From: Verrucomicrobiota bacterium
Lineage (GTDB): Bacteria > Verrucomicrobiota > Verrucomicrobiia > Opitutales > Cerasicoccaceae
Length of the DNA: 64,000 nucleotides
Direction of reading: 5' to 3'
Assembly (NCBI GenBank): GCA_039818205.1
Contig: JBCBUK010000001.1
Span: 192,001 to 256,000, forward strand
Both the position numbers and the translations under genes were made by a program. Of this stretch, positions 1 to 18,876 are shown one piece after another; the stretch's first letter is position 1, and every line of letters starts with the position of its first letter. The notes beneath the pieces were generated by a model. The model saw only the letters and a list, made by a program, of their open reading frames with translations, was not told where the DNA came from and did no database searches.

Positions 1-770
1 TCCTCGGCCTCTCGGAAAGTGACCCAATTATAACTAACATGGTCGCCGGAACGATCTTGGCTCGGGTATTTATTTACATGACCTGGGGCGGGCTCTATCT
101 CGTAATCACTCATTTTTTTGACGTCCAGGACGAGCTGCGCCGGACGGAATCCATCAAACAGGCCGCCCAGGTGGCCGAGTTGCAGGCGCTTCGAGCCCAG
201 ATCAATCCCCATTTCCTTTTCAACTCGCTAAACTCGGTGGTCGCCGAACTGCGGAATCCGGCCGTAGCTGAGGAAATTGCGTTAGCCCTTTCGAACTACC
301 TACGCTACTCCTTACAATACGAGGGGCAATGGCGTCCTTTTGGTGAGGAACTAGCGGCCATTGAAAGTTATCTAAGCGTTGAATCCCATCGATTTGCTGG
401 GCGGTTTGAGTATTCGGTCTCAGCGAACGAAACGACCCGCAATTTTCTCGCACCAACAGCACTCCTCTTACCCCTGGTTGAAAATGCAGTGAAGTATGGT
501 CAACAAACGAGCCCACCCCCATTACGCATTGAGATAGTCGCGAACACGGAAGATGCCATCCTGCATCTAACTGTTTCCAATACAGGAACGTGGATTGCCC
601 CCAGTGAGGATGGGCGAGACCGAATTGGCCTCGCCAACCTGCGCAGGCGGCTGGAACTTTTGGGCGAGAACGTCCACTTCGAAGTCAAACCTGTGGACAA
701 TCAAGTGGTGGCAACCATTGCATTTTCGCCATCAGTAGATACGGTAAACTGTGAGTCCATCTCAGACTAG
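1..770 (+). CDS. LytS/YehU-family sensor histidine kinase (5' end outside the window)
   Basis: Motifs LRAQINPHFLFNSLNS, LLPLVENAVKYG and IGLANLRRRL. Frame 3 is open from the window edge. Confidence 0.93.
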   Translation, partial: LGLSESDPIITNMVAGTILARVFIYMTWGGLYLVITHFFDVQDELRRTESIKQAAQVAELQALRAQINPHFLFNSLNSVVAELRNPAVAEEIALALSNYLRYSLQYEGQWRPFGEELAAIESYLSVESHRFAGRFEYSVSANETTRNFLAPTALLLPLVENAVKYGQQTSPPPLRIEIVANTEDAILHLTVSNTGTWIAPSEDGRDRIGLANLRRRLELLGENVHFEVKPVDNQVVATIAFSPSVDTVNCESISD

Positions 771-3455: not shown

Positions 3456-3579
3456 TTGCCGAGTGGCCTAACCGCGGACCCACCAACCACACCGCGCCCA
3501 GCCAACGTATCTCATTTGTAACCTAACGTAATAAAATCAGCCGTTGACACCCTACAAGGCAAGCACAAGCTATTATGGT

Positions 3580-6402
3580 ATGATGCTTCGTAAAGCCCTG
3601 CGACCGCTGACCTTTTATTTTCAACTCTTTGCCCTGTTCGTTGCTAGTTCGATTACTGCTGTCGCAGTGACGGTTACCTTCGACCTCGATGACAAAGGCA
3701 CCCACGCCGGCGGCGGCGAGCTGGTCCAAATGATCGATTCTGGCACGGCGGCCATTGCGCCCACGGTTTCCGCCAGTGCCGGATGGTTCTTTGATTCCTG
3801 GGATACTGATTTTTCCAATGTGACAACGGACATCACAGTCAAAGCACTCTACCGCCCGGTCTTCACCGTGAGCTTCGACCTCGACGGAAAAGGAACACGC
3901 ACCGGGGGCGGCGAACTCATCCAAGAAGTCGTTTTTGGCAGCCCAGCCATCGCCCCCGAAGTCGACGCGGATACCGGCTTTGTCTTTGGCGGTTGGGACC
4001 ATGACTTCTCTTCGGTTACCGCCCATCTCCTGGTGACCGCAAAGATGCTACCCGCCTACACGGTAACGTTCGACATTAGCCCGCGAGGGACGCTTACGTC
4101 GGGGGAGTTGGTTCAGGTCGTCGGCGAGGGCCGAGCAGCAACGGCACCCGAGTTCACAGTCGATACCGACTGGGCATTTGCTAGCTGGGATACGGCCTTT
4201 GACTCCGTTGCCGAGGATGTGACGGTAATGGCAGTCTACGAGTCCACAATTCTCCCGACCTATACGGTTACGTTTGACTTAGACGGAAAAGCAACGCACA
4301 CTGGCGGCGGCAATTTGGTGCAACAGATTGAAGAAGGTGGTGCGGCGATTGAACCAGGCGTGGAAGCACTGCCCGATTTTCAGTTCGATGGCTGGGACAG
4401 CGATTTCGACAACATCACTTCGGACCTCACAGTAACGGCCAATTACACTCCGTTCTACACAGTCACCTTTGACCTTGGAGTTCATGGCACCCTCCTTGCC
4501 GGATCCTTGACCCAGAAAATTCTTGAAGGAGAACCGGCAATCCAACCGGTTTTTGCCGAAAGCGACGGCTGGGCATTTTCTGGTTGGGACCAGGGTATTT
4601 CCCGAATACTTGAAGACACAACCCTCACGGCTCAATACCTGCCCTCGAAGGACACAGTAGTTTCCGGAACCGAGATTTTCTTGAGTAGTTTAAAAAATGG
4701 ATACTTCGCCGGAGGCGTCGGTGCGCATGTCGCCATAGACGGTGACTGGGCAATTGCGTCCCGAGGCAATAATGAATTGAAAAATTATCTCGATATTTTT
4801 TCCCGAAATGAGGACGGATGGGAGCCCGTCTCTCAATTTCGTGGCCCATCCAATCGGGACTATATTTCTAACTTTTTTGGAATACCCGCAAAAATCAGCG
4901 GCAGGACAATTCTTACCCGAACAAAAAACTTAATTAATTCGGGCAAATATGACATTCATTTATACGACGGGCCAAGGCAATTTCCTGAAGACTTTGATAA
5001 CGATTTCGGCTTCAGCCAAAGTGGGTGGCAGTGCCTAGATATTGATGGCGACACACTCATCTTCGCCGTTGTCCCGAGGTTTAATTCTACGAATGACTTT
5101 AGTGGTCAGGTCCATATTTATGAACGGGGGGTTGAAGAGTGGTCGCTCGCTCAGATCTACGACGGAGACTCTACCGATTCGATAAATTCCTTTGGGAGAG
5201 CAGTTGCTATCTGTAACGATACCATCATCGTCACTGCATGGCCGAATCGGGCCAGCGACCCCGATCTAAACATTGGAGGGAGCGCCCACATCTTGGTCAG
5301 GAAGACTGATGGCACATGGGAAGAACAAGCAGTTCTGGATGCGGATTTAGACGGCGTCGCGCACATATTTGGAGGATCCGCCGCCATCTCCGGAGATACC
5401 GCCATGGTTTCGGCGGTCTGGCTTGATATAGAAACCAACACCTATAACCGAGGAATCTACGTATTCGTTCGTGCTGGCACTTTTTGGGCGCGGCAGGCTG
5501 TCATCACGACCAAAACTGATGTATCCTTTGCTAACAATAGCGAGCCCGCGTTTTCGCTTTGGGGCCGAAAACTAGTGGTTTCGGATGACGATGAGACTGG
5601 CAATCTATATACAAAAGTATTCATCCAAGATGGCAGCGTCTGGCGCGAGACGGCCCAACTACCAAGAGCTAGCAAGAATCTTTCAATTAGCGGAAATACC
5701 GTTGTCCTCGGATTTCCGAAAACGATGATCTTTGACCCCATGTATTATTGGGACCCGTGGTTTGCCACAGGCTCCGTCGTCTTCTACGATCTAGCCGCAA
5801 CAAATTATAGGGTGAGGTTTGACCTAAGCGGCCGGGCCTACCCCACGGAAGGCGGAGAACTTCTCCAAGTGATTGAACCCGGTGGGGATGCTGAGGCACC
5901 AATGACCAATAACTTAGAAGGTTGGCTTTTCACCAGTTGGAATTCCGAATTTACAAACGTTACTAGTGATCTTGTCGTAGAAGCAAATTTCCTTAGAGAC
6001 ATTGACGAAGATACAATCCCAGACGATTGGGAGAGAAAGTATTTTGCCAATCCCTTTATTGCGAATACAGAGACGAATTCCGATTCCGATGAGTTTTCTG
6101 ATGGCCAAGAATTCGTCATCGGGAGCGATCCCACTGATGGCAGCGATTACTTTACCATCACCGAACAAACTTTCAATGGAGCCAATTCGCAGCTAACTGT
6201 ACGGTTCCGCTCCAGCGACGATCACCCACAACGTCGCTACCGCATCCTCACCAGCAGCGACCTAGTACAAGACTCCTGGCAACCACTAGCGGGCGCTGAG
6301 GCAATCGTACCGGACAGTGGCGACTACACTGAATTCACGATTACTATTCCAGAATCTGACGAACGTCGTTTCTTCAAACTGGAAGCCTTTATGCAGAACT
6401 GA
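3580..6402 (+). CDS. Secreted mosaic surface protein: 6 Listeria-Bacteroides (Flg_new/InlB-B)-like repeats, FG-GAP_2-like propeller, C-terminal verrucomicrobial acidic module
   Basis: Signal peptide; repeats TVTFDLxxxG...ELxQ...AxAP...WxFxxWDxDFxxVTxDxTVxAxY; FGxxxAISGDT blades; DIDEDTIPDDWE...EFVIGSDP...RRFFKL. Start moved from TTG 3544, which coincides with a -35 box. Confidence 0.85.
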   Translation: MMLRKALRPLTFYFQLFALFVASSITAVAVTVTFDLDDKGTHAGGGELVQMIDSGTAAIAPTVSASAGWFFDSWDTDFSNVTTDITVKALYRPVFTVSFDLDGKGTRTGGGELIQEVVFGSPAIAPEVDADTGFVFGGWDHDFSSVTAHLLVTAKMLPAYTVTFDISPRGTLTSGELVQVVGEGRAATAPEFTVDTDWAFASWDTAFDSVAEDVTVMAVYESTILPTYTVTFDLDGKATHTGGGNLVQQIEEGGAAIEPGVEALPDFQFDGWDSDFDNITSDLTVTANYTPFYTVTFDLGVHGTLLAGSLTQKILEGEPAIQPVFAESDGWAFSGWDQGISRILEDTTLTAQYLPSKDTVVSGTEIFLSSLKNGYFAGGVGAHVAIDGDWAIASRGNNELKNYLDIFSRNEDGWEPVSQFRGPSNRDYISNFFGIPAKISGRTILTRTKNLINSGKYDIHLYDGPRQFPEDFDNDFGFSQSGWQCLDIDGDTLIFAVVPRFNSTNDFSGQVHIYERGVEEWSLAQIYDGDSTDSINSFGRAVAICNDTIIVTAWPNRASDPDLNIGGSAHILVRKTDGTWEEQAVLDADLDGVAHIFGGSAAISGDTAMVSAVWLDIETNTYNRGIYVFVRAGTFWARQAVITTKTDVSFANNSEPAFSLWGRKLVVSDDDETGNLYTKVFIQDGSVWRETAQLPRASKNLSISGNTVVLGFPKTMIFDPMYYWDPWFATGSVVFYDLAATNYRVRFDLSGRAYPTEGGELLQVIEPGGDAEAPMTNNLEGWLFTSWNSEFTNVTSDLVVEANFLRDIDEDTIPDDWERKYFANPFIANTETNSDSDEFSDGQEFVIGSDPTDGSDYFTITEQTFNGANSQLTVRFRSSDDHPQRRYRILTSSDLVQDSWQPLAGAEAIVPDSGDYTEFTITIPESDERRFFKLEAFMQN
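3667..4638 (+). repeat. Five tandem ~65-codon intragenic repeats (sixth copy at about 5806-5994)
   Basis: Visible in protein and DNA, e.g. ttcgacctcgatgacaaaggc vs ttcgacctcgacggaaaagga. Confidence 0.85.
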
Positions 6403-10862: not shown

Positions 10863-11462
10863 ATGAAATCTACTGCTTTTGCCTCATTGCTTTTGTCTGC
10901 CGCCTCCGCTCAGGCCGCTTTAGTATTCAACGTCATTGAGGCCGGTGGAAACGTCATTATTGATACAACTGGTGGAACAATCAACACAACGGCCCTGGTC
11001 CCAAACGGTAGCGTAAGTCTTGCCTCTCTGGTAGCTCCAAACATTGCATTTTTTACCGCCGGAGGCGACGCACCAGTTGATTTTTATGCAGGTACCACAG
11101 GACCAACTACATATGGCACTGGAAATGGCCGTGTGCCGAGTAGTACAGTTGGCACGCTTGTCGGGGCTCTTGGCGGTTCCACAGAAATAATTGTACCTGC
11201 CGGATATGCTTCTGGATTTCCAATTGCCGCAGCGAGTTCGACTTACATTGGACAGACCTTTGCTAGCCTCGGGATGACTCCGGGCTCGTATGTTTGGACC
11301 TGGGGCGTTGGTCCAAGCGCTGACAGCGTTACGCTCAACGTCGGCCCACTTGCAGTCGCTATCCCCGAACCATCGACCTACATCGCCATCGCGGGCATCC
11401 TTGGCCTCGGCGCATTCGTCGCCATTCGCCGCCGCAAGCGCCAACGTGCCGTTGGATCCTAG
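10863..11462 (+). CDS. Small secreted PEP-CTERM protein
   Basis: Signal peptide (ASAQA), Gly/Thr-rich domain, IPEPSTY + TM + RRRKR. Confidence 0.9.
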   Translation: MKSTAFASLLLSAASAQAALVFNVIEAGGNVIIDTTGGTINTTALVPNGSVSLASLVAPNIAFFTAGGDAPVDFYAGTTGPTTYGTGNGRVPSSTVGTLVGALGGSTEIIVPAGYASGFPIAAASSTYIGQTFASLGMTPGSYVWTWGVGPSADSVTLNVGPLAVAIPEPSTYIAIAGILGLGAFVAIRRRKRQRAVGS

Positions 11463-11723
11463 TCAACCTCCGGTTGGATCGATGAAGGTGTCAATCGAGC
11501 ATTCTCAATCGCTCAGCATACGGATTGATCACCTACACACTCCGGCCCTGTTTAGTAACGGGCCATTTACCTTATTTTGTAACCAATCGTGTACTAGATC
11601 GTAAAAACGGATTGAATCAAGGAATAACCCTAGTGATAGTTACTCAACTTATTGATCCTGAAGACTGCTGCTAATCAATAAATTGTATCGCCTAACAAAC
11701 TGGGCCAACAACTACTATCACCC

Positions 11724-14700
11724 ATGAAAACAAATCGCCTCCTACCGTGTGGGTTCGCTTGCGCTATCCTTGTTTTAGCACATTCGCTCAATGCCCTCAC
11801 CTACCCAGAATGGGTAGGGGCTACCAATCTCCCAACGAACCAATCTGCACCGAATCAGAACCCAGACGGCGACCCCTACAATAATGGGCTCGAATATGTG
11901 TTCGGTACCGACCCACTCGTTGCGGATTCAGCAGAAATCGTGGGCCCCTACATCCGTGATATTGGCGGGGCACGTCACTTCTCTTACATGATCAACAACG
12001 ACCTCGATGCGGAAACCAGGGTCATGTATGAAAACTCCACTGATCTCGCACCCAATGGCTGGTTCTCCAAGGCCTTAACCGCTCAAGGTGGCACGGACCC
12101 CAACTACCCCAACTCAACGCGCTACAACGAAATCATCGACCAGAATGATCCACGTAACTTTTATCGCCTGACATTCATAATTGATTACAGCCCAACGCTG
12201 GAGGCAAAGATCGAAGTCGCCGTCAACGCAAGTGAAACCTGGGACGGTTTATCGGGCGGTCTCCCGCCGATCACTAAGGCCTATATCTATCAGAAAATGC
12301 CGGTGGTAACCAATACCACGAACGAAGACGTCAGCCGCTACCCTCGGGTAATTGGAGCTGATCAGGCAGGAACGACGCCAAACTTTGAGCAGGACTATTT
12401 TGGCAACGGCGTCCGTGCACCCATCCGCAACTGGATGGGATGGTTTCTGTGGGGTAATGGGATGCCACCACCCGAACGCACCGCTGGTTATCCTTACAAC
12501 TGGGATGGCCCAATATCAGAGGACTGGGATTTTTACGCCTGGCAGTTTACCGATCCCGAGAACCTCCGCACAACCGGCAAATGGCGCCCAGTCCGAGTCG
12601 ACCAACAGCCGCTATACATGCATCCGCTGCGCCTCAACTACAATTGGGCACCAGGGCGCTTCGGCTACGAAGCCCAACCCATGCAGCATTTCCCCGGCGA
12701 AGCAAAATTTTGGAAAGATAAGAATATTGTCCGCGGAGTGAATCTTTCACCGAACTATCCTTACTTCATTCAATACGGAAATCGGATCCAAGAAGCCGAT
12801 GTCCCAAATTACCCGGACTCCTGGCGCGAGCAATGGCTACGGATGAAACTGCGTCCACTTGAAACCCTCGTCCTCGTGCCATCGGTATTGCCCCCGACCG
12901 ATCTAAACGACGACGGCGAATACCTGCTAGGCCAAGGCATCTGGAACCGCGTCGCCGACAATGATTACGAAGTCTTCCCCTACCCGGTCTTTAACTCGGA
13001 GACATCCCCCAAAGACCAGACTCCCTATGGCATCTTGACCGACCGCATCGGAGACTGGCATGCCGACCTGGTGTTCGAAGGCGGACACCCACGGCTCACC
13101 AATTACGATCCCGTGCGCTACTTCCGCACGCGCTTCAGCGAAATGGCTGACGGTAATTATTTGAAGATGACTGTCGCCCAGGGTTCACCGTTCGTCTGGT
13201 GCGAGTTCGCGGCGACTCGTGCAGCTCCTAGCGACCGGGATCGCTACATGATCTTCTACAACTTGATTCGTCTGAACCTGGAGGGTGCTATCGACAACAA
13301 CGGTGGCTACCAATTCCCGGACGGAGGCAAAACCGTCCCAGGCACTGATGCCGAAACGCTTGCGGGTGGTCCCTGGGAAGTGCCTGGTGTTGATGGCGTC
13401 AGCTATGTCCTCCTCTACGGAAATCAAAACAATCCCAACCAATGGTTCATGGAAGTTGAGCCCGAGTATGGGAAAGTGCCCGACCCGCAGCAAAAGGACA
13501 ATTTTGTGCCTGGCGGTTTCAATCAACCTGGCGATCAAGACAACCACACCTACTTTGCGATATTTTACCGCACCGATTCGGTTGAGCCGGTCACGCTGGG
13601 TAGTGGCGGCGCAAACTCCGCTGACAACAACGGAACCGACGCCCAGGGCAACCCATACTTCTTCCTAAAATTTAAGGAAGACGACCCGACCTACATTGCG
13701 ACCAAGAAAAACTGGTTCGTCGTCGGCCAAGTGCCCGTCATGCGCTATTATCATACCGATGTCGCGCGCGACGATCGGGCTGCACTCGACCAAGCAGCAA
13801 AAGACTGGGCAGACGAGATGGGCAAATACGCCTTCAACTTCCTCACCGAAACGAAGGTCGAATACTCGGTTACAAACATGAACCGCGTCGACTCACTGTT
13901 CGATGCCACCTATGCAAACCCCTACGAAGAAGCCGGCGCGACCAATGCCGCTGCCATGACTGCTGACGGGAAATCGGTGTGGGCACTTTTTCCTCACCAC
14001 TATCAGCCACTTACTCTCGGACCGGACCTGACTAAGTCGTCTCGAGATCAAGTGGTCTGGGAGCCACTCCAAACCGCCGGGATAGACTTCCCGTCCATCA
14101 CCGGTGCGCCCAACGCCAACAAGAGCACTCCCTCGACCAATTCACGTTGGGATTACTGGCATCCACGAGGCAACCTCAAGTCCGTCATCACGGACGACTT
14201 TGAACTGGCTTATCCTTTCCAAAATTTCTTACCCGCAATGCCTGAGCCCAAATGGGACACTAAATACCGGCAGTCGGGCATTCAATACCTCACACTGGCC
14301 AACGTCGCTGGCTACGAACAAATCACCGACACGGTTCAGGCAACAATTGTCGACAAACGGCCCGACAAACAGGGTGTCGGAGCCTCATTCGAGGTTCTAC
14401 TCGAACCATTCACGGGACGTATTCTGCAAGTTGATGTCATTAACAAGGGCCACGGCTATCCGATCGGTGAGCCTCCACCGACAGACCTTGTCGAGCTCGT
14501 CATTGACCCGCCAGCTGTGCCATTGGACCAAGGTGGTCGCCAGGCAAAAGCACGCATGCAGATTAATGGTGAAGGCCAAGTGTTAGCGGTATTCATGGAC
14601 GACAAAGGCGCGGGTTATCGCACCACAATTCAGGTCACCCAACCGGGTAATCCGAACGTCGAACCCGCAATCATCGAACCAAAATTTGATGGCAACCAGC

Positions 14701-17700
14701 GCATGATCGCGGGACCAGCCACCATCATCTCGGGTGGTTCCGGCTACGACTTTTCGCAACCGTTCACGACTCAGATCATCGGCAAGAAAGTCGGAACGGA
14801 AGAACCGATCATCACCATCTCAAAACCCGGTGAAATTTACGGCATCACCAACACTGGAATCGGTGGATTCGACGCCACGGGCTCCTATCCACTCATCAAT
14901 GATAGCTTGGAAGACACCGCTGCAAACATCGTGGCCGAACTACCGCCGCCTCCCGGCGGTGGCTCCGCTCCCGAGCTTGAGGTCTCCCTTGTAAACCTCA
15001 ACGCACTCTTGGGAGTCGCCATATTTGACCAAGGAAGCTATACGACCAAGCCAACGCGTGCCTATTACATCGACGATGATGATATTGAACAAACCCTGCA
15101 GGGAATGGAGTTCATCGAAGACGCCGTTAACGGCACGTTCCACCTTGTCCACCTTAGGAACCCGCTCACACCAACAAAGGTCTCAACCCGCAAACCGGTC
15201 GTATTCGAAGGCGGCACTGGCGACGCTGCCGAAGCCTATGCTTACCCAGCAACTACGATCAGCGGAATCTCGATTAAGCCAGGCACCGCCGATGATGTCT
15301 TCTATCCACAATCGGTAGACGTCGCCATCTCCGGCGGCAACATTGGCCCAGGCGCGAACTTCGAAATGCCCGAGTTCGACCTTAGTGTGGGCAACGATGG
15401 CAAACTAGTTTTGAATGGGTTCAAAGACGGCAAAATTGGCAAAGGCTTCAATCAAACCGCAAAATTCTTTGTCTACGGCGGCCGCGGTAAAGATGCCGCG
15501 ATGCTACCGACGGTCGATGAGTCTGGCACCATTACAAGTATCGACATCCTCCGCCCAGGAACCAACTACCCAGTTGGGGCTGTCAACGCAGTCATACGAA
15601 GTGGTTCTGGAGGCTCCGGCGCCGAACTCCAAATCAATGTCAACTCAACTGGCACGACGCCTGAAGATCGGTTCATCGAATCCGTATCCATCATCAACGG
15701 CGGCACTGGCTACAGCGCGAGCGATACCGTGGAACTACTGCAGAATGTTGGCCTAAACAAGACAGCATCGCCACCTCGCGGCGCTTACGCCCGCATCGTC
15801 GCCGAACCGAATGGAAGTGGAGGTCTCGAGAATCCAGCAATCCTAAACAACCTAGCTCAGGAAGGCTACTTCCCGGGGTTTGGTGGGACGACCAACGATC
15901 AATCGGGCCGTTTCTACCTCGCCTATGATTCCACCACCAACGATCCTGGCAACAACGATACAACCAATCAGCAAGTGCTCTCACCGCCGTCCCAAGGGGC
16001 TGGATTCGTCACTAGTTTGGTGCCGCAGGAGATCAACGTAGAGCAAGTTCTATACGACAATACGATCGGCCAATACCAAACCAGCATGTCCCATGGCGTG
16101 CGACCATTCGGCGGTGCCTTTGGAGGTGCCACCGCACCCGACGGTTATGGTCTTGGCAATCAGCTTTCGCGGACGGTAAAGGATGTCAACGTGCTCTACC
16201 ACTTGTCTCAGGCTTATCCCAACGGTAAACCAAGCGTCACTCCAAGCAAGTGGGCATTCAATGCTGGGCGAACCCCGTATATTCCGCCGCCTTACAATGT
16301 GGATCCCACAAAAGCGCCGCAACCAACCTACGAAGAAGGCCTGCCGATTCTGGCGGCGCACAATCCAATCTACTCCCTTCAGAATGGGTTGAAGACTTCG
16401 GTTCAAATGATGCAGCGGACCCTGACCCTGCTTCACTATTGCGATGATGAGGGCCGCCCCTACCACAATAACCCAACGGACGATCTCGTCTGGAAGATGG
16501 ATTATTTCTCATCCTACGACATCAATGCTGGGCGTATCCTGATAAACCCGAGTTCAACCATTCCAGTTGACGGTGTGGTGAGCTCTTACTTTGACCCGCC
16601 AGCACCCGACCCGGCAGACAACCAAAAGCAAGGGCTCCTCAAATGGGAACCTGGCAAACTGTGGAGTGGCTTCGGCGTTTCTGATCAATGGAACGACCAG
16701 CACTATTTCTTCGGTTATTACCTAGGCGTTGCCGGATGGGCAGCCATGTTTGATCACTCTTGGGACCCGAACATAGCGGGACGCCCAGACAAGCTCTGGT
16801 CCGACCAAGGAACCCTGGCGACCGATATCATGCCCGACAGCGACGGCATGGGTACTGCGCTCGATCAGTGGTTCCTCTCGGTGGCAAACGATCCCGACAA
16901 CGAGGCGCTGCAGAATGCCGTTTATAAAGTGCCTGAGTTCACCTACCAAAAGTTGCCCTTTATCGACCAATGGACCGGACATGGGTGGGCAACTGGAGCA
17001 CAGCCAGGCCCAGCAGGCGCCGTGCTCGATGTGGATGTCCCCTGGGCAATCGCGCAATCATCGGGAACCTCGAACTTCAAGTTTGGTGAGGAAAATGAAA
17101 ACTCCGTCTGGGAAGGCCTGCAGGCCTTCAGCGCCGCGATCCTCTGGGGTGCGGGAACGGATCGCAAACCGCTCATGGACGTCGGAGTCTACATGCTCGC
17201 AACGGGCATGGCCGCAAACGACATCTACTTTGCCGACAAGAACTATAACCTCACTGAGTCCGATAAAAACCAATTCTCTTGGGTGCCCGTGACCACCATC
17301 GCATCGAAGGATCTACCACTCGACCAGAATGGCGGAAACCTTGGTTTTAAGATCAACTCAAGCTTTGTCACGGCGGTGAATCCGCAATACTACATCGCGC
17401 CAGATTACTTTGGCGGTGAAGCCTCGACGGGCATTTCTCTAATCCGGAAATATGGGCCGACCTTGAACAACTTCTTCTACGCCTTCCCGACGGGCACGAA
17501 GTTCATCACAGCCTACCCGCCAGCGGCATGGACCATGGGGCTCTCCCGCAATAGCGACTACATGCGCGCCTGGGCTGGAGCGATGATGCAGCAGGACTGG
17601 ACGGACGCCAAAAACTCAGCTCTCTACCAAGGCGGAAACTGGGTCGGCATGGCGTTGACCTCAGCAATGTCGGGCGTCCCCTATAACCCAGGTGACCTAC

Positions 17701-18146
17701 CACTCAACGAGGCCGGCACCGCGCTCAAGCCAGGGTTTGAACCGTATGTTGATCGCTTATATGCCAGCTGGACATCGCTCACGAGTTTAGCCGGTGCCAA
17801 GGCACAGCTTCAACCGGCATTCAGCTCCACCTCGATCCTTCACTTCCTGCACTCGCTCGATGCCTGGGGGACACCGGACTGGACCTACTGGGGACGCGCG
17901 ACCAATGACAGTGGTGCCAACGACAACACCTCAATGGTGTTAATGGCCGCGATGTCGAAACTCTCTGAGGACGGCACCCAGGTCGAGACCACCTTCTTTG
18001 CCTTCAATCCCGGATGGGAAGACCGCTACTGCGTGTTCGATCGCCTCGGTGGAGACGGCTCAATTGCCGATCCCAACGTATCAGGTGTGCTGACGATCAA
18101 GCCAAAGCAAATGGCCAAAAAGACGATAACGTTCGATATCCAGTAA
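11724..18146 (+). CDS. Giant secreted GH81-like (endo-beta-1,3-glucanase-like) protein with large internal repeat insertion
   Basis: Signal peptide. GH81-like motifs in order: MTVAQGSPFV, ALFPHHY, YWHPRGNLK, FLPAMP, WNDQHYFFGYYL, FIDQWTGHGWATG, ENENSVWEG...AAILWG. Confidence 0.75.
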   Translation: MKTNRLLPCGFACAILVLAHSLNALTYPEWVGATNLPTNQSAPNQNPDGDPYNNGLEYVFGTDPLVADSAEIVGPYIRDIGGARHFSYMINNDLDAETRVMYENSTDLAPNGWFSKALTAQGGTDPNYPNSTRYNEIIDQNDPRNFYRLTFIIDYSPTLEAKIEVAVNASETWDGLSGGLPPITKAYIYQKMPVVTNTTNEDVSRYPRVIGADQAGTTPNFEQDYFGNGVRAPIRNWMGWFLWGNGMPPPERTAGYPYNWDGPISEDWDFYAWQFTDPENLRTTGKWRPVRVDQQPLYMHPLRLNYNWAPGRFGYEAQPMQHFPGEAKFWKDKNIVRGVNLSPNYPYFIQYGNRIQEADVPNYPDSWREQWLRMKLRPLETLVLVPSVLPPTDLNDDGEYLLGQGIWNRVADNDYEVFPYPVFNSETSPKDQTPYGILTDRIGDWHADLVFEGGHPRLTNYDPVRYFRTRFSEMADGNYLKMTVAQGSPFVWCEFAATRAAPSDRDRYMIFYNLIRLNLEGAIDNNGGYQFPDGGKTVPGTDAETLAGGPWEVPGVDGVSYVLLYGNQNNPNQWFMEVEPEYGKVPDPQQKDNFVPGGFNQPGDQDNHTYFAIFYRTDSVEPVTLGSGGANSADNNGTDAQGNPYFFLKFKEDDPTYIATKKNWFVVGQVPVMRYYHTDVARDDRAALDQAAKDWADEMGKYAFNFLTETKVEYSVTNMNRVDSLFDATYANPYEEAGATNAAAMTADGKSVWALFPHHYQPLTLGPDLTKSSRDQVVWEPLQTAGIDFPSITGAPNANKSTPSTNSRWDYWHPRGNLKSVITDDFELAYPFQNFLPAMPEPKWDTKYRQSGIQYLTLANVAGYEQITDTVQATIVDKRPDKQGVGASFEVLLEPFTGRILQVDVINKGHGYPIGEPPPTDLVELVIDPPAVPLDQGGRQAKARMQINGEGQVLAVFMDDKGAGYRTTIQVTQPGNPNVEPAIIEPKFDGNQRMIAGPATIISGGSGYDFSQPFTTQIIGKKVGTEEPIITISKPGEIYGITNTGIGGFDATGSYPLINDSLEDTAANIVAELPPPPGGGSAPELEVSLVNLNALLGVAIFDQGSYTTKPTRAYYIDDDDIEQTLQGMEFIEDAVNGTFHLVHLRNPLTPTKVSTRKPVVFEGGTGDAAEAYAYPATTISGISIKPGTADDVFYPQSVDVAISGGNIGPGANFEMPEFDLSVGNDGKLVLNGFKDGKIGKGFNQTAKFFVYGGRGKDAAMLPTVDESGTITSIDILRPGTNYPVGAVNAVIRSGSGGSGAELQINVNSTGTTPEDRFIESVSIINGGTGYSASDTVELLQNVGLNKTASPPRGAYARIVAEPNGSGGLENPAILNNLAQEGYFPGFGGTTNDQSGRFYLAYDSTTNDPGNNDTTNQQVLSPPSQGAGFVTSLVPQEINVEQVLYDNTIGQYQTSMSHGVRPFGGAFGGATAPDGYGLGNQLSRTVKDVNVLYHLSQAYPNGKPSVTPSKWAFNAGRTPYIPPPYNVDPTKAPQPTYEEGLPILAAHNPIYSLQNGLKTSVQMMQRTLTLLHYCDDEGRPYHNNPTDDLVWKMDYFSSYDINAGRILINPSSTIPVDGVVSSYFDPPAPDPADNQKQGLLKWEPGKLWSGFGVSDQWNDQHYFFGYYLGVAGWAAMFDHSWDPNIAGRPDKLWSDQGTLATDIMPDSDGMGTALDQWFLSVANDPDNEALQNAVYKVPEFTYQKLPFIDQWTGHGWATGAQPGPAGAVLDVDVPWAIAQSSGTSNFKFGEENENSVWEGLQAFSAAILWGAGTDRKPLMDVGVYMLATGMAANDIYFADKNYNLTESDKNQFSWVPVTTIASKDLPLDQNGGNLGFKINSSFVTAVNPQYYIAPDYFGGEASTGISLIRKYGPTLNNFFYAFPTGTKFITAYPPAAWTMGLSRNSDYMRAWAGAMMQQDWTDAKNSALYQGGNWVGMALTSAMSGVPYNPGDLPLNEAGTALKPGFEPYVDRLYASWTSLTSLAGAKAQLQPAFSSTSILHFLHSLDAWGTPDWTYWGRATNDSGANDNTSMVLMAAMSKLSEDGTQVETTFFAFNPGWEDRYCVFDRLGGDGSIADPNVSGVLTIKPKQMAKKTITFDIQ

Positions 18147-18207: not shown

Positions 18208-18876
18208 CTAGCAAATCACCTTCTTTGCGTGAAAGCGGCGGCGGATTACCAATCCCAACAAACCAATCATTCCGATTGAAGCGACGATCACCGCCGGCTC
18301 CGGCACCGCTGCCACAGGAGCCACGACATCCACATCAATGCGATCACCAGTGCCCAGTGTCACCAGCGTGTAGTTTCCAGGAATCAGACGAAGGTCGTTG
18401 AAATCGACCCCTGGATAAAGGGCACTCCCAAATATCGGCGCATTTGGAACATAGCTCTCTGGTAAGAAGAGGAACATTCCAGGATCATTCACGATGATCC
18501 CAACGGCTGCGACACCGGCAATCGAATTTACCCGCGGAACCGCAACCGAGTTATCATGAAATAGGCTGGAAGCCGGAGGAGTAAATGGAATGTTCAATTG
18601 CGATGACATAGAACCATCACCGGTAAAAAAATCAACCTGGCCGCCAGCGGTTCCCTCCGTATATCCGTCAACCAGAACAGTATTTCCAAATGTAAATATG
18701 CCTGTGGTATCGAGTGTCCCGGCAGCAATTAACGATACATTCCCTCCAGACTCAGTGAAGGTTAAGGTTAATACAGCATTGGCATTGGTCAATAGGCTCA
18801 TGCCTAGCACAAGGCCAAGCAGGTTTCGACAAGTATTATGAGCTGCACTTGCCAGCAGCGGACGCAAACCGATCAT
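18208..18876 (-). CDS. Small secreted PEP-CTERM protein, paralog of 10863-11462 (start uncertain)
   Basis: ANA-VLTLTFTESGGNV vs AQA-ALVFNVIEAGGNV; LRLIPGNY vs LGMTPGSY; VPEPA + TM + RRR. Confidence 0.85.
   Translation of the reverse strand: MIGLRPLLASAAHNTCRNLLGLVLGMSLLTNANAVLTLTFTESGGNVSLIAAGTLDTTGIFTFGNTVLVDGYTEGTAGGQVDFFTGDGSMSSQLNIPFTPPASSLFHDNSVAVPRVNSIAGVAAVGIIVNDPGMFLFLPESYVPNAPIFGSALYPGVDFNDLRLIPGNYTLVTLGTGDRIDVDVVAPVAAVPEPAVIVASIGMIGLLGLVIRRRFHAKKVIC

Follow-up and report, generated by a model that had tools for sequence, protein, structure and literature searches.

What kind of protein results when an enzyme of the GH81 type carries, just before its catalytic barrel, a long block of repeats resembling those of phage virions? 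The question is raised by a gene in a 64,000-nucleotide stretch (positions 192,001 to 256,000, forward strand) of contig JBCBUK010000001.1 from a Verrucomicrobiota bacterium of the family Cerasicoccaceae, referred to here as the window. A first-pass annotation, made from the sequence alone, had described it as a glucanase split by a long rigid stalk of phage-structural type. Our analysis indicates that the architecture is very probably that of two GH81-derived halves with an insert in the linker before the barrel, and that the first catalytic glutamate of GH81 is replaced by asparagine. The parts of the gene that carry this are listed below.

11724..18146, forward strand: the whole gene, encoding the GH81-like protein with the insert (P0001, 2,140 aa); one intact open reading frame (ORF), with 24 full-length homologues at 37-65% identity.
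12201..14273, forward strand: GH81-like N-terminal half (beta-sandwich domains, aa 160-850), assigned from profile matches to N-half segments of 6fop and 5t4a and by hhalign; no Pfam match.
14274..16031, forward strand: all-beta insert (aa 851-1436) with 12 degenerate GxGY units of about 38 aa counted by eye, 5 of which score strongly; AF2 model with pLDDT 87.2 and pTM 0.77; delimited with PHROG, fold, matrix and conservation evidence.
16032..18143, forward strand: GH81-like (alpha/alpha)6 barrel and C-terminal strands (aa 1437-2140) with long extra loops; AF2 model with pLDDT 79.9 and pTM 0.85, Foldseek and VIA matches.
16695..16697, forward strand: Asp1658, counterpart of the general-acid Asp of GH81 (ND-H-H motif), invariant in 138/138 sequences.
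17100..17102, forward strand: Asn1793, where GH81 enzymes have their first catalytic Glu (E515 in CtLam81A, E500 in barley GBP1), Asn in 68/68 proteins of its clade.
17112..17114, forward strand: Glu1797, second Glu of the motif, invariant in 138/138 sequences.

As a single sequence the protein scores weakly, with 16.5 bits to Pfam GH81C (PF17652), below the gathering cut-off of 25.6, and an E of 0.027 to 6fop (CtLam81A). Several insert-bearing homologues pass the PF17652 gathering score (29-43 bits), and a profile of insert-bearing proteins matched 6fop at E 4.5e-11. Searches with the C-terminal half retrieved 49 relatives, some of which form a group without the insert, 1,150-1,460 aa long. 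With a profile of 11 insert-less relatives, CtLam81A was matched at E 7.9e-45 and BhGH81 at E 2e-34, and the matching segments were collinear in both halves. Aligned with each other by hhalign, the insert-less and insert-bearing profiles (A4 and A1) gave a probability of 100, and in the portion of the alignment listed the gap opened where the insert sits. With the predicted model of the C-terminal half, Foldseek matched GH81 only (6fop, E 9e-9), the top ESM Atlas matches belonged to PF17652, and VIA superposed it on BhGH81 (5t4a chain 364-778) with Z 19.9 and a root-mean-square deviation (rmsd) of 3.2 over 396 aligned residues at 14-19% identity, no other family rising above Z 9.4. The N-terminal half, which gave no match to PF03639, was assigned at profile level, from collinear segments against 6fop (best independent E 0.0049). 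The C-terminal half thus has the GH81 fold and the N-terminal half is GH81-like by profile, which bears out the GH81-like flanks of the first-pass annotation; the motifs it had quoted are also in place (FLPAMPEPKW at 14226-14255, GxGY units at 14421, 14580, 14724, 15531 and 15675, EQVLYD at 16041 and DGYGLGNQLSR at 16140). Its relatives carry automatic database labels of GH81 or glycosyl hydrolase. Going by sequence, we would file the protein as GH81-like rather than as a member of GH81, because it lacks the first Glu, one of the residues that define the family.

The insert, of about 575-586 aa, lies between the positions of CtLam81A residues 312 and 337, in the pre-barrel linker where it had first been placed. 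With rows having false regex anchors left out, insert-bearing proteins have about 600-780 aa between the anchors on either side, whereas insert-less proteins have 48-76 aa there and only a short linker at the site. We assembled 149 GH81-like sequences, of which 138 were kept after removal of 8 with no locatable core and 3 identical ones, and, after thinning out 24 near-duplicate Lachnospiraceae-type rows, built a tree of the remaining 114 with the motif columns removed; it was made by a quick method with SH-aLRT support only, midpoint rooting and no approximately unbiased (AU) test. The 41 insert-clade proteins, grouped by their acid motif, lie on one side of a 99% branch in this tree, and the insert profile covers at least 516 of 574 positions in all 41, down to about 36% overall identity. 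A small insert at another place is present in 1 of the 27 other members of the Asn clade described below, and none of the 70 canonical GH81 proteins carries one; the survey of homologues with and without the insert that had been suggested thus separates one clade (41/41) from canonical GH81 (0/70). Among the carriers are Opitutales, other Verrucomicrobiota, Microcystis and Snowella. Judged from these sequences, the insert is a single ancient insertion. Its guanine-plus-cytosine content (0.547) is like that of its flanks (0.549 and 0.556) and only two short DNA repeat pairs were found within it, and on these grounds a recent duplication or a recent import was rejected.

Some carriers differ in their setting. 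The insert-bearing protein of the Microcystis cluster has no signal peptide; in two loci of Microcystis/Snowella (L131 and L132, P0025 cluster) this homologue is followed by a 1,141-aa protein of unknown kind, an HNH nuclease gene and further unknowns, and in L130 an insert-bearing homologue is followed by a gene similar to the one downstream in L131 and L132. P0018, P0033 and P0034 are homologues that also lack a signal and have long C-terminal extensions with no family match, made of propeller-like repeats, a Gly-rich collagen-like stretch and a long helical tail, a layout that we take to be reminiscent of injected-cargo proteins.

At the first-Glu position of the QESxSE ([Q/E]ESxSE) motif, the 138 sequences have either Glu (70, all 70 of them canonical GH81) or Asn (68, that is 68/68 of a wider clade) and nothing else. 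The motif aligns without gaps, reading G-N-N-Q-E-S-S-S-E in canonical proteins, G-H-N-E-N-S-I-G-E in insert-less relatives and E-E-N-E-N-S-V-W-E in the window protein. The Asn proteins lie on one side of a long 99% branch, with the insert clade nested among them, and their N-E-N-S-x-x-E motif is conserved across Verrucomicrobiota, Chlamydiota, Dependentiae, methanogens and cyanobacteria. The residues on the acid side are kept across the clade, namely Tyr1475 (100% of the insert clade), Asp1658, His1660, Gly1664, Asp1748, Trp1755, Glu1797 and Phe1918. In terms of sequence, then, Asp1658 and Glu1797 are retained, and where canonical GH81 has its first catalytic Glu the clade always has Asn, a change that the first-pass annotation had not remarked on. 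We take the Asp at the position of Asp1658 to be the general acid, as we presume D466 to be the acid and E542 the base of BhGH81. Since one invariant replacement occurs within a conserved motif over a deep clade, a retained function fits better than decay. With Asn at the first catalytic Glu, the activity implied by the name glucanase in the first-pass annotation is not assured, while the GH81-like fold stands. Insert-less Asn-variant proteins (L045-L061, P0063) are frequent in environmental Chlamydiae and Dependentiae/Babeliales and present in Methanoregulaceae, all of them hosts for which a glucanase has no evident use.

The explanation that we favour is that the gene encodes a secreted glycan hydrolase, probably held at the cell surface, from an uncharacterised GH81-derived subfamily, which would cleave a beta-glucan-type chain by inversion. 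Asp1658 would protonate the glycosidic oxygen, and water would be activated by a rebuilt base site in which Asn1793 acts with Glu1797 and/or Glu1792, in the manner of Asn92 in PcCel45A, an inverting cellulase described as using this Asn as its base (PMC4643802). The insert would project from the enzyme as two short, branched arms, made of six beta domains that have six strands each and are nested in one another; it would play no part in catalysis and most likely provide a weak, multivalent grip on polysaccharide, extracellular polymeric substances or cell wall beside the cleft. The same role has been hypothesised for the additional out-and-back sheath domains, accessory beta-sandwich domains of phage virions (PMC9230969). 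This explanation draws support from the fold and profile matches, which point to GH81 only, from the retained acid-side residues, from the insert being kept whole in 41/41 proteins with modular additions, and from GxGY modules that form loops in further secreted enzymes and at a second site in P0055, a related GH81-like protein (see below). As a whole chain it is a tentative reading, which could well hold but which we would not call probable; activity and the adhesive role, both predicted, are its weak steps.

Several observations weigh against it. The canonical Arg (100%) and Glu (97%) are lost along with the first Glu, and the canonical Lys of DxYxxGK is Asn or Gly in the insert clade (comparison of 45 canonical, 27 and 41 rows). 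For many hosts of the wider clade, glucan degradation is not known. The loop with Glu1792 before Asn1793 has pLDDT under 50 (model residues 346-356), so the geometry of the base site is of low confidence. No conserved neighbours, operon or polysaccharide (glucan) utilisation locus were found around the gene in 10 relatives. The 586-aa insert has 0 Trp, compared with 3.4-3.5% on either side of it, and most of the aromatics conserved in it are the Tyr residues of the repeat itself, unlike in classical carbohydrate-binding modules (CBMs). Finally, 6fop is itself the E515A mutant of CtLam81A, an equivalent change, and mutation of the first Glu to Ala is reported to abolish the activity of barley GBP1 (10.1101/2023.04.12.536646).

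Loss of the water-activating Glu could be the sign of a different substrate or chemistry on the same architecture, such as another glucan linkage, transglycosylation, phosphorolysis or elimination. Inverting (alpha/alpha)6 enzymes without a base include phosphorylases, and the joint loss of the Glu, Arg, Glu and Lys positions, the low identity to GH81 in the structural alignment, the odd host range and a barrel half of 704 aa with many extra loops, compared with about 415 aa in BhGH81, all go in this direction. Yet the acid side and several stacking residues remain GH81-like, no other family approaches by fold, and a secreted location would make phosphorolysis less likely, so that we regard a change of chemistry as possible but unlikely.

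Rather unlikely, too, is a catalytically dead beta-glucan-binding protein (an adhesin, sensor or capture protein), in which the Glu-to-Asn change would trap the substrate and the arms would add binding or presentation. An acid-to-amide change is the usual route to an inactive enzyme that keeps binding, which together with the inactive first-Glu mutants of GH81 and a stand-alone gene among surface-protein genes, such as its PEP-CTERM neighbours, gives this possibility its weight. Against it, dead enzymes usually vary at the lost position, whereas a very deep clade shows hardly any variation at Asp1658, at Glu1797 or in the N-E-N-S motif, although binding could fix these residues as well.

The build of the insert bears on its part in the hydrolase proposed above. 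Its repeat unit of about 38 aa has three strands, and most of the 12 units counted by eye are marked by a conserved Tyr or Phe. A position matrix from 69 units of other proteins, partly circular since the training proteins came from a search with the insert profile, found 5 strong unit cores in the insert and 0 in the other 1,554 aa of the protein; when the insert was shuffled 200 times, the mean was 0.155 and the maximum 1. Topology was read from the DSSP strand list and single-domain fold-match ranges rather than from model coordinates, with the following arms as the predicted result.

14280..14828, forward strand: Arm A, a putative base domain I (aa 853-868 and 965-1035) enclosing tip domain II (aa 869-964); from DSSP and VIA ranges 19..205, 23..210 and 39..134.
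14832..16019, forward strand: Arm B, a putative hub domain III (aa 1037-1092, 1176-1208 and 1420-1432) enclosing tip IV (aa 1096-1175) and domain V; from DSSP and VIA ranges 207..602, 215..602, 266..345, 379..587 and 425..523.
Within 14832..16019, forward strand: domain V of Arm B (aa 1209-1254 and 1354-1417), enclosing tip VI (aa 1255-1353); from the same DSSP and VIA ranges.

Three contiguous domains (model residues 39-134, 266-345 and 425-523) have six strands each, every one a different circular permutation of two units, and three split domains (19..205, 207..602 and 379..587) absorb the remaining 18 strands, with other domains nested inside them. The insert is likely to consist of two branched arms, one two and the other three domains deep, which together comprise six nested domains of six strands. 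An independent agreement with this two-unit layout comes from lineage-specific additions, measured in 40 of the 41 proteins: all 6 large ones, of 81-95 aa, correspond to one two-unit module, one of them appearing as two pieces of 42 and 39 aa. The long rigid rod that had been suggested does not agree with the strands and fold-match ranges, which point to short arms with both ends together. Moreover, we take the two GH81 halves to share one sandwich domain, as in GH81 structures, and the C-terminal strands are seen in the model of the C-terminal half; the insert would therefore loop out rather than space the halves.

By conservation the insert averages 0.50, compared with 0.64 in the flanks, and domain II is its most conserved domain (26 of 96 positions at 85% or more), with many conserved positions outside the repeat signature. 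This domain, and the constant 12-unit layout held in 41/41 proteins to about 36% overall identity, make it improbable that the insert, taken by itself, is a tolerated decoration, a mobile module that nests easily through its adjacent ends and at most stabilises or shields the enzyme, even though such modules land in many unrelated proteins and sites, insert-less relatives persist and the additions are sporadic.

As had been proposed, the units are related to those of T4-like and cyanophage virion proteins. The insert unit matched 7 PHROG families, the best a baseplate wedge family (E 2.4e-6) and others neck and virion families. Cyanophage structural proteins in BFVD matched the insert by fold at E 1e-7, with a TM score of at most 0.18, and the nearest ESM Atlas clusters were viral (0.94, with recognition under the tool's reliable range). 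The prediction that a fold search with the insert alone would hit phage proteins held for these predicted structures and failed to give a clear solved one: with a 626-residue model and a tool threshold of Z 8, the best matches of single domains had Z 5.7 and 5.2 (sheath proteins) and at most 3.8 (immunoglobulin-like). A Foldseek search of the PDB with the insert model returned junk-level matches only, which says nothing for the fold being new, and single-sequence and insert-profile searches of solved structures gave nothing meaningful. Pfam and NCBIfam scans assigned no family to the whole protein or to the insert, nor any CBM family to the latter, and the GxGY module had no Pfam family in the scans although it is abundant in cyanophage structural proteins. 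A tblastn search of the insert against 50,697 phage records found no match at E 1e-3, and none of 598 matches in viral contigs to patterns taken from the GH81 flanks was a relative of the whole protein. The insert profile, scored on 7,999 candidates, had 65 matches, among them multicopper oxidases and further cellular proteins in which the arrays are long. The GxGY unit, at sequence level, is thus homologous to virion repeats and not specific to phages, being common in secreted cellular proteins, and the label of a phage-type module holds for its homology and not for its specificity.

Other carriers show the module in various places. In the same genome, a 630-aa beta-lactamase-like serine hydrolase (PF00144, E 5e-28; L020:376-2268, about 306322-308214 of G000:C1) has four GxGY units inside its catalytic domain, between the YxxS and KNG motifs. 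In another genome of the class, an SGNH/GDSL hydrolase (L145:313-3357, reverse strand), which shares an N-terminal module with the window protein, has a GxGY array just before its Asp-x-x-His motif; the GxGY search that found it matched 9 of 151 genomes. Multicopper-oxidase-like proteins (P0095, P0099, P0104 and L136) are broken by very long arrays, that of P0099 having dozens of units and a PHROG match at E 4e-136. Two unrelated repeat-rich secreted proteins (L140 and L142) have a two-unit module in the same loop of an N-terminal 'INYQGR' domain, and L047/P0055, an Asn-variant GH81-like protein of the kind that stands closest to the insert clade as a sister in the tree, has an independent two-unit insertion (aa 743-824) in a different loop. 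It is possible, though speculative, that two GxGY units make up a hitherto undescribed beta domain which can be circularly permuted and nested within its own kind, and which serves as a general plug-in passed between the virions of aquatic phages and bacterial secreted enzymes having at least four folds, and that it builds here a branched, glycan-gripping arm on a new GH81-descended glycosidase family without the canonical glutamate base, working by Asn-based or non-hydrolytic chemistry.

An ordinary GH81 glucanase that carries one long phage-derived rod, or whose sandwich and barrel are held apart by it, is very improbable, since the catalytic Glu is absent, the fold-match ranges 16..608, 19..606 and 207..602 bring both termini of the insert into one domain or into neighbouring domains, the depth is predicted at no more than three domains, many cellular proteins carry the module and 50,697 phage records gave no tblastn match to the insert at E 1e-3, although a well-ordered, all-beta insert model and the homology to cyanophage structural proteins would suit it.

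Among known systems, the GH81 endo-beta-1,3-glucanases (BhGH81 5t4a, CtLam81A 6fop, RmLam81A 4k35 and barley GBP1) have in common with the window protein the barrel and C-terminal strands, collinear N-half segments, the acid Asp, the second Glu and several cleft residues. The window protein differs from them in being about three times longer, in its pre-barrel insert, in Asn for the first Glu, in the lost Arg, Glu and Lys and in scoring under the Pfam cut-off; the accessory domains of characterised bacterial GH81 enzymes are described as separate CBM6 or CBM56 modules (PMC9609564). With the GxGY virion proteins of cyanophages and T4-like phages (PHROG 2885, 460, 701, 708 and 438) it has the unit of about 38 aa in common by hidden Markov model and predicted fold, the PHROG match being stronger for its homologues (E 1.6e-11). 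Its insert differs in degenerate units, a fixed and predicted six-domain branched layout, a cellular enzyme as host and a global TM score of at most 0.18. The T4-type tail sheath protein gp18 is described as built of nested out-and-back domains (PMC9230969), which resembles the insert, and tip IV matched gp18 99-186 with Z 5.2 and rmsd 2.9 over 76 residues at 10% identity, and the KP1 sheath with Z 5.7, both under the threshold of Z 8; this may be a common arrangement only. In the tailspike depolymerase Dpo31/Dpo36 of phage Carin-1, a beta domain (D3*, 434-536) is reported to be inserted in the polysaccharide-degrading domain (PMC13317679). To Dpo31 there was one weak profile hit (E 0.00095, chain 400-529), which was not reproduced by insert-only profiles, related repeat proteins or fold searches. 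PcCel45A (GH45 subfamily C) is likewise inverting with Asn as the base, on an unrelated fold, and serves as an analogy of mechanism only.

Two features at the N terminus concern the location of the protein.

11724..11795, forward strand: predicted signal peptide (aa 1-24), read by eye from a basic start, a hydrophobic core and an A-x-A-type end; the pattern is conserved among homologues.
11796..12179, forward strand: N-terminal module (aa 25-152, NPDxD...LEY.FGTDP...FYRL), from a paralogue search of the genome; no Pfam match.

The N-terminal module (128 aa here, about 125 aa in its family) has 29 copies in the genome, 28 of them at the C-termini of ORFs, mostly of large proteins, including one in the window (ORF 3544-6402, at about 5900-6400); in the protein of 11724-18146 it is N-terminal. 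From these copies it is probably a candidate surface-sorting or anchor domain of Verrucomicrobia, and the protein, of about 230 kDa, is probably secreted and held at the surface. The gene is chromosomal, amid housekeeping genes, and is flanked by two similar-looking PEP-CTERM genes on opposite strands (10863-11462, forward, and 18208-18876, reverse), which are not conserved among relatives. No sigma-70-like promoter was found in 11400-11800. The closest named homologues, at 50-65% identity, are from Cerasicoccus, Ruficoccus and Puniceicoccus. Of 41 related genomes, 11 have one full-length copy each (in the same family 9 of 15, the window genome excluded), which rules out an assembly artefact. 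A search for a canonical GH81 elsewhere in the genome with PF17652 gave no match, but the control was also silent, so that its absence is not established.

The first-pass annotation had not recognised this architecture among characterised GH81 enzymes, and we likewise found no published description of it, of the Asn clade or of the GxGY repeat in a literature search made mostly at the level of abstracts, so that a prior description is possible. The function of the GxGY module is open to direct testing on a soluble enzyme with and without the insert, and for protein engineering a domain that can nest and whose ends are adjacent is of interest. If the proteins are inactive, that of the window would be a large glucan-binding surface protein. 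If they are active, the Asn clade would be a natural experiment on water activation in GH81, the essential residue being absent, and may call for a new subfamily or family in CAZy, with members in Verrucomicrobiota, environmental chlamydiae, Dependentiae and Microcystis.

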